This document shows positions 16,477 through 42,406 of a stretch of 64,000 nt of DNA, one piece after another; the first letter of the stretch is position 1; the number at the start of each line of letters is the position of its first letter. The notes below the pieces were generated by a model. The model was not told the DNA's origin. It saw nothing but the letters and a program-made list of their open reading frames with translations, and did not search any database. The translations under genes were made by a program, and so were the position numbers. Location: assembly GCF_056746865.1 (NCBI RefSeq), contig NZ_CM163382.1, one strand, 5' to 3'.

Positions 16477-16561
16477 GCCGAAGTGGCGAAATCGGTAGAC
16501 GCAGTTGATTCAAAATCAACCGTAGAAATACGTGCCGGTTCGAGTCCGGCCTTCGGCACCA
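16477..16561 (+). tRNA. leuX: tRNA-Leu (anticodon CAA), 85 nt with encoded CCA
   Basis: GCCGAAGTGGCGAAATCGGTAGACGC...CGGTTCGAGTCCGGCCTTCGGCACCA; anticodon loop TTCAAAA; long variable arm typical of tRNA-Leu. Confidence 0.95.
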
Positions 16562-19995: not shown

Positions 19996-20325
19996 TTGTT
20001 ACCTCCTGGACCGCTTCTTGTCCTTCCAGTCGGAGCGAGAGTTAGCCGGGGCGGACTTTCACCGACGGAAAGATCGTGCATTTCAAGGCACACACAACAA
20101 TATCTGCGAGCGTGCTATCCGTCCGGTCGTTATGGGACGAAAGGCCTGGTTGTTCGCTGGTTCACTGGTGGCCGGGAACCGCGCGGCACAGATAATGAGC
20201 CTTCTGGGAACCGCAGTCTGGAGCCACATGCTTGGCTGACGGACGTCCTGACGCGTCTGCCGGAGTGGCCGGAGGAGAGGTTGGCTGAGTTACTGCCTCT
20301 TGAGGGCTTTACCTTCTTCGGGTAA
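19996..20325 (+). pseudogene. IS66-family transposase C-terminal remnant (frameshifted); coincides with a 109-aa yjgZ-like ORF
   Basis: Two overlapping frames encode ...ERAIRPVVMGRKAWLFAGS... and ...AWLTDVLTRLPEWPEERLAELLP..., both similar to the C-terminus of the IS66 TnpC at 45.7 kb. Confidence 0.6.
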
Positions 20326-20814
20326 GTGATACCTGCCGTCAGGTGTTTGTGCACCGGGCCATAACCTGCAGTTGGGAATTGAACGCCTGACAACAGGAAA
20401 TGAGCTAGAGCAGTAAACACGCGGGCTGACAATGGGTCAGAATATGAGTTAGCCCGGCGTTATTCCTGGGGTCAGTACTTCAGATCTAGCCTCCGGTACC
20501 AGACTAGCTAGCCCCTACGCAACCAAATAAATCAACCATCGTCAGAGTGCAATCGTTCATATACACTGTCGGTGATGCGCTAAAAAATGCGTTAATGTTG
20601 AGTTCCTCGAACCCTTACCAATTAAGGGACATAGCCAGATACGCAACTGGCTGATGCAAGCAGTCTAATGTCTTTAGATCCGCTGGCCTGCGGGCATGAC
20701 AATGTCAAACAGTCAAAGATTGTGGCGTTGACGGTCAGTCTTGGGGACAAAAAAGCTCAGTATTCTCGTTGGCAACCAGATAATTTAACAGTTGATGCTG
20801 AAACGAAATAGGCA

Positions 20815-20826
20815 TCTTGGTTCTGT
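20815..20826. repeat. Target-site duplication (left copy) of IS4: ATCTTGGTTCTG
   Basis: Identical 12-mer found again at 22252-22263. Confidence 0.85.
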
Positions 20827-22251
20827 AATGCCAGTCAGTTAAGCAACTGACTGGCTCTTTTTCGGGGCTGTGGGGTATTTCCAGGGCCTCTCCTTTACCA
20901 CTCTCGGGAAGGCCCTTTCCCTTCTTGTCGGTAATTTCACAAGTTGTCCCATACTTGCAAGATCGCGCATCAGCTCCGGTATACGTCCCGGTGAAGCGCC
21001 CTGCAATGTCATCAGCATTCTCATCACCATTCCGCATGATTCTGAGAAACTCAGTTGATTCGGCCAGTAACCTTTCAGATGTTCCGCCATTTTAATCATC
21101 TGATATCTCACCAGATTATAAGCCAGTAAGACACCCCACAGCTCTTGCTCCACAAGCTCCGGCTTTTTACTTCTCAGCGTCAGCCTGCTCCGTTGCATCG
21201 TCTGTTTTATCTCCCTGTATCCCAGTTCGATTTCCCAGCGATGACTGTACAGATCCCCCATTTCTCCTCCGGGGAAGCGCATGGCGTCCGTCATCGACGT
21301 CAGCAGATGGCAGACTTTTCCTTTGCGCGTCACGGTCAGCAGGCGGGCAGTCACTTCATTTCCCAGTCCCGGCCACTTTTTTCGTGCCTGCGGGCTGGTT
21401 TTCAGCTTCACCAGATGATCGCCTTTACCCAGTTTTCTGATCTCTTCATATTGCGCTCCCTTTCTGAGAGGTATCATCCAGTGGCGGTGTTCTCCCGCCA
21501 GGCTCCAGGCATTTAACAGTCCCAGTGAGTAATAACCTTTATCCATTAACGTCAGAGTGTTATCGCCGGTTTGTTCTATAAGTTGCTCAGCAAGCTCATT
21601 TTCGCTGTTCTTCATCGTGCCGAAGGCTGCAGCCGTCAGCAGATGGCTGGTCAGTTCCATCTGGCAGACCATTTTGACCTGCGGGTAGAGCGCCGGGTTC
21701 CCGGCATGTGTCTGGCGGGGGAAGGCTGCATCGTTCTCTGGTGTATCCGGTGTGCGCCAGAACACACCATCGATGGCCAGCAGGGTCAGGCCGCACCAGT
21801 GCGGATGCGGCGTGGCGTTATGCCAGAGCTGCGCTGTTTTCGTGAACACGCGGCGGACAGCCTCACTTCCCAGGCGCTGGCGGGCCTGAATAACGGCACT
21901 GGGGGCAACGAAGGGGCGATTGCCCGGCAGCATGATGTCCAGGCGATTCACAATCTGGTGAAGAGGTTCTTTACGCTCAAGCGCCATGCCAACAATACAC
22001 CAGACCATCATTTCGAGGGGAAGACGGCGCTTGCGTAGCGTTACAGTACCTGATTCGGCAAGGCAACGAGAGATGAGTTCGGGGTCGAGGTAATCCCCCA
22101 GAGAAGTCAGTGGGTTACGCAGAGAATCGTAACGGGATACCAGATCAAGAGCCTGTCCAATGTGCATAAAAAAATCCGGAAACAAGTGAGCGTTTCCGGA
22201 TTCTTACACAGCCACTGGATCGGTCAACTGATCCTTAACTGATCGGCATTA
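20827..22251 (-). mobile_element. IS4 insertion sequence (about 1.43 kb)
   Basis: Terminal inverted repeats TAATGCCAGTCAGTTAAG / TAATGCCGATCAGTTAAG; single transposase ORF; 12-bp direct repeats flank it. Confidence 0.9.
20839..22167 (-). CDS. insG: IS4 transposase
   Basis: 442-aa product from [16 protein letters not shown]... (DDE transposase); ORF track start 22185 is 6 codons upstream. Confidence 0.85.
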
Positions 22252-22263
22252 ATCTTGGTTCTG
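22252..22263. repeat. Target-site duplication (right copy) of IS4: ATCTTGGTTCTG
   Basis: Identical to 20815-20826. Confidence 0.85.
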
Positions 22264-22793
22264 GTGTTTGTAACAAACTATCAGCTACAAAAATATGCTC
22301 AATTTGTGACATCAGTAACAAAACGCGTTTTGTTATGTGGATTGCTTGTTTTTTGATCTGGTATAACAGGTATAAAGGTATACAGAAAAGCAAAGAAATA
22401 CTGCAAAGGAAAACAGCTATAACGTAAGCTAAAGTAATAACCTCTCAGTCTTTCCTCATTTGACGAAGGGAGTTTTATTCAACCTGAACGGACTACGAAA
22501 ATGAGCACAATGAATAAGTCAATTTTTGAAGCAGGGTTGAACTGTGCCAGTGGTGGAATATCTGGCGAACATTGTTTTTTGTTGGTGACCCAAAACTGTA
22601 GGTGGGTATCAGTTTTATCTTTCATAGAGTGAAATATGTTAAGAAGAAATGGAGGAAAAGATTGTACTGATTAGGTATTGATAACAATCAATAGTACTGG
22701 CGTATTTGAAGACAATATAATTATTTCTGGATATTGTTGAGGCTCCCTAATATTTACTTTAAGGGCTATATTAGAATAACACAGGAAACAAAT

Positions 22794-24011
22794 ATGGCAA
22801 CAGCATGGTATAAACAAGTTAATCCACCACAACGGAAAGCTCTTTTTTCCGCATGGCTTGGATATGTATTTGATGGCTTTGATTTTATGATGATATTTTA
22901 CATTCTTCATATTATAAAAGCAGATCTTGGCATTACGGATATTCAGGCTACTTTAATAGGGACAGTGGCCTTCATAGCCAGACCTATTGGAGGTGGTTTT
23001 TTTGGTGCCATGGCTGATAAATATGGTCGTAAGCCAATGATGATGTGGGCAATTTTCATTTACTCAGTCGGAACAGGCCTTAGCGGTATTGCTACAAACT
23101 TATATATGCTCGCAGTTTGCCGTTTTATTGTTGGCTTAGGGATGTCTGGTGAATATGCATGTGCTTCAACTTATGCGGTAGAAAGTTGGCCTAAAAATCT
23201 TCAATCTAAAGCTAGTGCTTTTTTGGTAAGTGGTTTTTCTGTTGGAAATATTATTGCGGCACAAATAATCCCTCAGTTTGCTGAAGTATATGGATGGAGA
23301 AACTCTTTTTTTATAGGCCTGTTACCAGTTTTACTAGTTCTTTGGATCAGAAAAAGTGCTCCAGAAAGTCAGGAGTGGATTGAAGATAAATATAAGGATA
23401 AATCAACATTTTTGTCTGTCTTCAGAAAACCACATCTTTCAATCTCTATGATCGTTTTCCTCGTCTGTTTTTGTCTATTTGGTGCAAACTGGCCGATAAA
23501 CGGACTACTTCCTTCCTACCTGGCAGATAATGGAGTTAATACAGTGGTCATTTCAACTCTGATGACAATAGCAGGTTTAGGAACACTGACAGGTACAATA
23601 TTTTTTGGTTTTGTTGGTGATAAGATTGGTGTAAAAAAAGCCTTTGTAGTCGGTCTAATAACTTCATTTATTTTCCTTTGTCCTCTTTTTTTTATTTCTG
23701 TGAAAAACTCTTCTCTTATAGGATTATGTCTCTTTGGATTAATGTTTACAAATTTAGGTATTGCAGGGTTGGTTCCAAAATTTATATATGATTACTTTCC
23801 AACAAAATTAAGAGGATTAGGGACCGGTCTTATTTATAACTTAGGGGCAACTGGAGGAATGGCCGCACCTGTATTAGCTACATACATTTCAGGATATTAT
23901 GGCTTAGGTGTTTCATTATTCATTGTTACGGTTGCATTCTCTGCCTTATTAATTTTGTTAGTTGGTTTTGATATTCCAGGTAAAATTTATAAACTATCCG
24001 TGGCTAAATGA
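22794..24011 (+). CDS. yjhB: MFS transporter (sialic acid/NanT-like subfamily)
   Basis: 405-aa 12-TM protein from MATAWYKQVNPPQRKALF...; AT-rich codon usage. Confidence 0.8.
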   Translation: MATAWYKQVNPPQRKALFSAWLGYVFDGFDFMMIFYILHIIKADLGITDIQATLIGTVAFIARPIGGGFFGAMADKYGRKPMMMWAIFIYSVGTGLSGIATNLYMLAVCRFIVGLGMSGEYACASTYAVESWPKNLQSKASAFLVSGFSVGNIIAAQIIPQFAEVYGWRNSFFIGLLPVLLVLWIRKSAPESQEWIEDKYKDKSTFLSVFRKPHLSISMIVFLVCFCLFGANWPINGLLPSYLADNGVNTVVISTLMTIAGLGTLTGTIFFGFVGDKIGVKKAFVVGLITSFIFLCPLFFISVKNSSLIGLCLFGLMFTNLGIAGLVPKFIYDYFPTKLRGLGTGLIYNLGATGGMAAPVLATYISGYYGLGVSLFIVTVAFSALLILLVGFDIPGKIYKLSVAK

Positions 24012-41400: not shown

Positions 41401-41625
41401 GGAAATAAAATTGTTTCCAATAGACATTTTTAACATGTTGTTTTTCTAAGTGTTATAAGGTAGGTATAAAATGGGATGGAGCCTCTGCTTCTGGCATGTG
41501 TCGGTCAGAATGACTCATGATGTGGTCTGCTATTATTGACATCCTCACTGCCCTAAAGGATGGGGATTTCGGTAATGCTGCCAACTTACTGATTTAGTGT
41601 ATGATGGTGATTTTAAGGTGCTTGC

Positions 41626-41901
41626 GTGGCTTCCATTTCCATCAGATGTCCTTCCTGCTCCGCTACTGAAGGCGTGGTGCGTAACGGCAAAAGCACTGCC
41701 GGACATCAGCGCTATCTCTGCTCTCCTTGCCGTAAAACATGGCAACTACAGTTCACTTACACCGCCTCTCAGCCCGGTAAGCACCAGAAAATCATTGATA
41801 TGGCCATGAATGGCGTCGGATGTCGCGCCAGTGCACGCATTATGGGCGTTGGCCTCAACACGGTTTTACGTCACTTAAAAAACTCAGGCCGCAGTCGGTA
41901 A
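41626..41901 (+). CDS. insA: IS1 InsA (zinc-finger/HTH repressor)
   Basis: 91-aa [26 protein letters not shown]... Confidence 0.85.
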
Positions 41902-42323
41902 CCTCGCGCATACAACCGGGCAGTGATGTGATTGTCTGCGCTGAAATGGACGAACAGTGGGGCTACGTCGGTGCTAAATCACGTCAGCGCTGGCTGTTTT
42001 ACGCGTATGACAGGATACGGAGGACGGTTGTGGCGCACGTCTTCGGTGAACGCACTCTGGCCACACTGGAGCGTCTTCTGAGCCTGCTGTCGGCCTTTGA
42101 GGTCGTGGTATAGATGACGGATGGCTGGCCGCTGTATGAATCACGCCTGAAGGGAAAGCTGCACGTTATCAGCAAGCGTTACACTCAGCGCATTGAGCGA
42201 CATAATCTGAATCTGAGACAACATCTGGCAAGGCTGGGACGGAAGTTACTGTCGTTCTCAAAATCGGTGGAGTTGCATGACAAGGTCATCGGGCATTATC
42301 TGAACATAAAACACTATCAGTAA
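41820..42323 (+). pseudogene. insB: IS1 InsB frame interrupted by an in-frame TAG (42111-42113)
   Basis: Track splits InsB into 41820-42113 and 42114-42323; ...[20 protein letters not shown]... where canonical InsB has ...VVIWMTDGW. Confidence 0.75.
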
Positions 42324-42406
42324 GTTGGAGTCATTACCTCCTCCCGAACTCAAAGCTATCATACAGATAATTACTGGTTAACCCTATATAGGGCATTTTA
42401 AAGTGT

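Follow-up and report, generated by a model that had tools for sequence, protein, structure and literature searches.

Insertion sequences of the IS4 family encode a DDE transposase in a single ORF, with a D(60-110)D(100-150)E spacing and a Y(2)R(3)E(6)K motif, and their target stagger is about one helical turn (PMC2266710). IS4 is the founding member of the IS4 subgroup, the elements of which are 1400-1650 bp long, have ends of the form -AATR--------WTW, are flanked by direct repeats of 10-13 bp and show a marked specificity for the target arms (De Palmenaer, Siguier and Mahillon, 2008; PMC2266710). The IS4 of Escherichia coli K-12 lies in the KpLE2 region upstream of yjhB/nanX, with an IS66 fragment as its left neighbour and nanX and nanY as its right neighbours.

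We analysed a 64-kb stretch of DNA (hereafter, the window), in which an IS4 of the same 1426-bp sequence occupies the same site in the same orientation, between the same neighbours and within the same 12-bp duplication. This copy is the resident IS4 of the KpLE2-type island, that is, the insertion already known from K-12. We consider it very probable (about 0.96) that the locus arose by a simple, single transposition of IS4 into non-coding DNA of the leuX-associated (KpLE2-type) island and that it has been inherited unchanged since. The finding matters little beyond correct annotation; a call made from the letters alone was accurate except for one base at its start.

A complete IS4 with an intact transposase gene

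Positions 20826-22251 were 100% identical, over positions 1-1426, to the IS4/insG of E. coli K-12 MG1655, C600 and ER1709. The match to MG1655 over all 1426 bp confirmed the original prediction that the element is IS4. The transposase gene insG (20839-22167, minus strand, which is thus the transposase strand of the element) was intact and was the sole long ORF, encoding 442 aa from the ATG at 22167; RefSeq places its start at the TTG at 22185, giving a product of 448 aa (WP_000483767.1). The protein matched the Pfam families Nterm_IS4 (E 3e-33) and DDE_Tnp_1 (E 2.8e-31), both above the cut-offs. The DDE triad was assigned by motif to D133, D209 and E314, separated by spacers of 75 and 104 residues. 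The YREK (Y(2)R(3)E(6)K) motif was present at residues 307-321.

The element is bounded by terminal inverted repeats of 18 nt, of which 16 positions (89%) are complementary. On the plus strand, these read TAATGCCAGTCAGTTAAG at the transposase 3' end (20826-20843), which holds the transposase stop codon (20839-20841), and CTTAACTGATCGGCATTA at the paired transposase 5' end (22234-22251). Both the AATG at positions 2-5 and the TTA at positions 14-16 fit the end signature of the subgroup. ORF organization and DDE spacing, YREK motif, ends, size and duplication length of 20826-22251 all agreed with the description of the subgroup, from which we found no difference. IS4-related sequence was present in 2,686 of 5,426 complete E. 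coli genomes. Further, IS4 copies with 100% identical DNA and intact duplications were found in closely related genomes at degS/mdh, in a prophage, at treF/yhjB, at tdk/adhE and in yicI, which is indirect evidence that an element of this sequence may be active.

Hairpins and a candidate promoter inside the ends of IS4

A strong hairpin followed by U7 lies directly upstream of the insG ATG (22170-22205, minus strand). The predicted RNA fold has an energy of -23.5 kcal/mol (z = -4.9), and none of 200 shuffled sequences was as stable. The hairpin was missed by the terminator scan and confirmed by folding; we think that the scan missed it because the stem can extend into the T-run. A candidate transposase promoter (TTGACC, 16 nt, TG-AAGAAT; 22200-22227, minus strand) matches the consensus at only 9 of 12 positions, and the promoter scan returned two promoter-like sites versus 2.4 expected by chance, so that this match is weak. 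Its -10 hexamer and the 5' hairpin arm overlap. Transcripts from the candidate promoter would therefore lack this arm, whereas in transcripts reading in from outside IS4 the terminator-like structure would form. Judged from its sequence, the hairpin may block transcription or translation that comes in from beyond the element.

IS10 and IS50 are protected against outside activation, and the arrangement of candidate promoter and hairpin in IS4 resembles their protection. A second structure, a perfect 11-bp hairpin (11 pairs, 6 of them G-C) followed by TCTTTTT, reads inward from the left end of IS4 (20830-20855, plus strand). It is terminator-like, with a predicted RNA fold of -19.6 kcal/mol (z = -3.9). 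Any role of these end hairpins is putative.

The 12-bp target-site duplication is single in empty-site alleles

The 12-mer ATCTTGGTTCTG was found in exact copies at 20814-20825 and 22252-22263, each abutting the outer end of one inverted repeat of IS4, with 1426 bp between the copies. The left and right copies are preceded by C and A and followed by T and G, respectively, so that neither can be extended and the duplication is exactly 12 bp long. This length lies within the 10-13 bp of the IS4 subgroup and within the 11-14 bp that we found at eight other IS4 sites (see below). The exact 12-bp repeat on both sides of IS4 had been predicted with the span 20815-22263; its end was exact, and its start was one base late, the true start being 20814.

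A repeat of this kind could have arisen by chance or have pre-existed as a duplication that was not made by IS4. When both strands of the window were searched with up to one mismatch allowed, the 12-mer had two matches in total, and in a loose test of the whole window at least two matches anywhere at up to one mismatch were found in 5 of 100 shuffles, which speaks for this alternative. However, the copies are exact and abut the ends of IS4 to the base, and identity of the two 12-mers next to any given element has a chance probability of 4^-12, or about 6e-8.

The comparison with empty sites in related strains, proposed with the original prediction, was decisive on this point. We joined the left flank, one 12-mer and the right flank into an empty-site construct of 1012 bp and aligned it to 5,426 complete E. 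coli genomes. It aligned as a single piece, with 99.4-99.5% identity, in 168 genomes. We read six of these alleles base by base (ETEC H10407, IAI39, ATCC 8739, A3024, B1 and A33), and all six had the form GAAATAGGC-ATCTTGGTTCTG-GTGTTTGTAAC, with one 12-mer between collinear flanks; the divergent A33 allele carried one substitution within the 12-mer (ATCTTGGTTGTG). A 12-mer duplicated at this locus without IS4 was sought among the empty alleles, including these six, and was not found. Since the 12-mer is single in the empty alleles, we concluded that the duplication was created by the insertion of IS4, and a chance or pre-existing repeat is refuted.

Given its membership of the family, the DDE transposase would have joined the two 3'-OH ends of IS4 to target strands staggered by 12 bp. 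Repair of the gaps after such a strand transfer would leave the two copies of ATCTTGGTTCTG.

The flanks have not been exchanged by recombination

IS4 may also have arrived, or have been reshuffled, by homologous recombination between IS4 copies, in which case the matching flanks would be the coincidental outcome of a reciprocal event. Partners for such an exchange exist, as the closest genome, that of E. coli 118UI, has five IS4 places. However, after an exchange between two IS4 sites, the repeats on the two sides of an element would not match, and those found here are identical. Further, over 1 kb the flanks were collinear with the empty allele, and over 24 kb both were collinear with 814 genomes. 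The collinearity with the empty allele indicates that no recombination between IS4 copies exchanged the flanks, and this alternative, too, is effectively refuted. The identical, abutting repeats and the collinear flanks thus upheld the view that this is a simple insertion without later recombination. After the single transposition that we favour, IS4 would have undergone neither excision nor recombination with another IS4, and its duplication would have stayed undecayed.

The IS1 in the window differs in this respect, as had also been predicted. This element (41571-42338, 768 bp) has no matching 9-bp flanks, with GGGGATTTC on the left versus TCCTCCCGA on the right. The annotation of the identical 118UI sequence places an IS911-family transposase at 25933-27100; terminal inverted repeats of IS911 were not found in 25800-27300 at the search stringency that we used.

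The insertion lies in non-coding DNA between an IS66 remnant and nanXY

IS4 interrupts no annotated gene and has non-coding surroundings. The order of features is tRNA-Leu (16477-16561), an integrase gene, a phosphoethanolamine-transferase pseudogene, the IS66 fragment, IS4, nanX, nanY, IS911, IS30 and fec, which places the insertion point between the IS66 remnant and the regulatory region of nanXY. The remnant is a degenerate fragment of an IS66-family transposase (20096-20325, plus strand; Pfam DDE_Tnp_IS66_C, E 3.6e-10) and is annotated as a pseudogene. A 47-aa ORF at 20668-20811 ends 2 bp before the left copy of the duplication. Some genomes, occupied ones as well as empty ones, list its product as a hypothetical protein (WP_000050905.1), for which Pfam returned no match.

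On the right side, the NanR operator of nanXY (yjhBC), with the sequence GGTATAacaGGTATAaaGGTATA containing (GGTATA)3 (PMC8012715; PMC3658417), was found intact at 22360-22382 (plus strand), 108 bp from the right end of IS4. No second triple repeat of this kind occurs in the window (one match versus none expected). The MFS transporter gene nanX (yjhB; 22794-24011, plus strand), identified by annotation and as an ORF, starts 542 bp from the end of IS4. The promoter scan found no outward-reading promoter from IS4 toward nanX. To judge from the sequence, the insertion left the NanR operator and nanXY intact, and any effect of IS4 on nanXY would be presumptive.

Positions 1-39999 of the window were identical (0 mismatches) to the clinical isolate E. 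coli 118UI (NZ_CP032515.1, 4991777-5031775). The wider region differs from that of K-12. In K-12, an IS2 separates the integrase gene from the phosphoethanolamine-transferase pseudogene; the window lacks this IS2 and retains an intact IS911 together with a DUF2254 fragment, a BCCT transporter gene and an IS600 fragment. Despite 100% matches at the IS4 locus, the window was not collinear overall with the K-12-derived AML002_ev03. K-12 has one IS4 place, compared with the five of 118UI.

The occupied allele is widespread and linked to one haplotype

An 88-bp probe for the left junction was found in 968 of the 5,426 complete E. coli genomes (approximately 18%), and the whole occupied locus (2450 bp) in 966. 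The 33 left-junction matches sampled all shared one orientation and were 100% identical; among their sources were K-12, B/BL21 and isolates of clinical, avian and bovine origin. The eight matches to the whole locus that we sampled were all at least 99.9% identical. Three positions on both sides of IS4 (20450, 20487 and 22465) distinguished the occupied haplotype from each of the six empty alleles, and the best identity of an empty allele to the occupied flanks was 99.5%. We also considered the SNP at 20775 as a single marker of the occupied haplotype and rejected it, as the A at this position is shared by the empty alleles B1 and A33.

So many occupied genomes could instead reflect a hot spot that IS4 hit independently in several lineages. 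IS4 is site-selective: the site at raiA/bamD was occupied in four strains and that at gspK'/glcA in two, with the same duplication each time, and the target upstream of nanX fits the pattern AAA-N20-TTT (see below). In contrast, all the occupied junctions sampled here were 100% identical and had one orientation, the three flanking variants were absent from all six empty alleles, the occupied haplotype was found in no empty allele, and the target is weak and non-palindromic compared with other IS4 sites. We therefore regard recurrent insertion as improbable. The sampled matches and the six empty alleles point to one old insertion of IS4 that was inherited with the leuX (KpLE2-type) island, and there was no sign of precise excision of IS4 among the alleles sampled.

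The occupied or empty state of the site provides a validated marker for the leuX island upstream of nanXY (approximately 968 versus 168 among the 5,426 genomes). In strains E04, FDAARGOS_1291 and LR-58-1, the IS4 at this locus is itself interrupted by one or two copies of IS200C.

The target upstream of nanX is atypical among IS4 sites

The literature of the 1980s held a target consensus for IS4, AAA-N20-TTT, based on three sites. Our literature search found no description of this consensus for IS4, and the pattern was tested directly on the sequence. It occurred once in the reconstructed empty site, AAATAGGC-ATCTTGGTTCTG-GTGTTT. In the window, this target (AAA-TAGGC-ATCTTGGTTCTG-GTG-TTT, 20806-22269) is split by IS4, with AAA at 20806-20808 and TTT at 22267-22269.

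We compared it with eight other IS4 sites in E. coli genomes: raiA/bamD, gspK'/glcA, terD, degS/mdh, the FI/capsid junction of a prophage, treF/yhjB, tdk/adhE and a site inside yicI. The N20 spacing was also found at raiA/bamD; the rest had N17-N19 or imperfect A/T runs. The duplications at these eight sites were 11 bp (three sites), 12 bp (four sites) and 14 bp (one site) long and were centred on palindromes, and several of them began with CAG and ended with CTG. Six of the eight sites (raiA/bamD, gspK'/glcA, terD, degS/mdh, tdk/adhE and the prophage site) were strong palindromes that lie between convergent or adjacent genes, and their 30-mers folded better than approximately 99% of background 30-mers from the window. 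Most of these six had the form of an intrinsic terminator, with an A-run, a G+C stem and a T-run. Among these sites, the target upstream of nanX stood out as weak: 3 of its 13 positions were symmetric, and its fold of -8.1 kcal/mol ranked at about the 10th percentile of the background.

IS231A, another member of the IS4 family, prefers the target GGG(N)5CCC with A/T-rich arms. The other IS4 sites are alike in being G+C-rich palindromes with an A-run on one side, a T-run on the other and a duplication that is centred on the dyad, whereas the target upstream of nanX, with its three symmetric positions, is not palindromic. Tentatively, and with the balance somewhat against it, we suggest that the IS4 upstream of nanX is an old 'source' copy, inherited vertically and with the island, at an atypical target that is not a hairpin, and that IS4 otherwise homes to terminator-like palindromes with a duplication of 11-14 bp centred on the dyad. 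If this is true, a genome-wide logo built from the approximately 5,500 E. coli IS4 places would refine AAA-N20-TTT into a structural rule. The link between IS4 targets and terminator-like hairpins, as seen at these nine sites, is a modest refinement of the known selectivity and is mildly new.

Two of the other copies showed changes of their own. In strain LWY24, the 14-bp duplication of the IS4 at raiA/bamD has one mismatch (CAGCTCAAGGGCTG versus CAGCTCAAGGACTG), presumably as the result of a later point mutation. The CFT073-type IS4 at the gspK'/glcA site (strains CFT073 and AVS0362) is 1425 bp long and annotated as frameshifted, and is a decayed copy.
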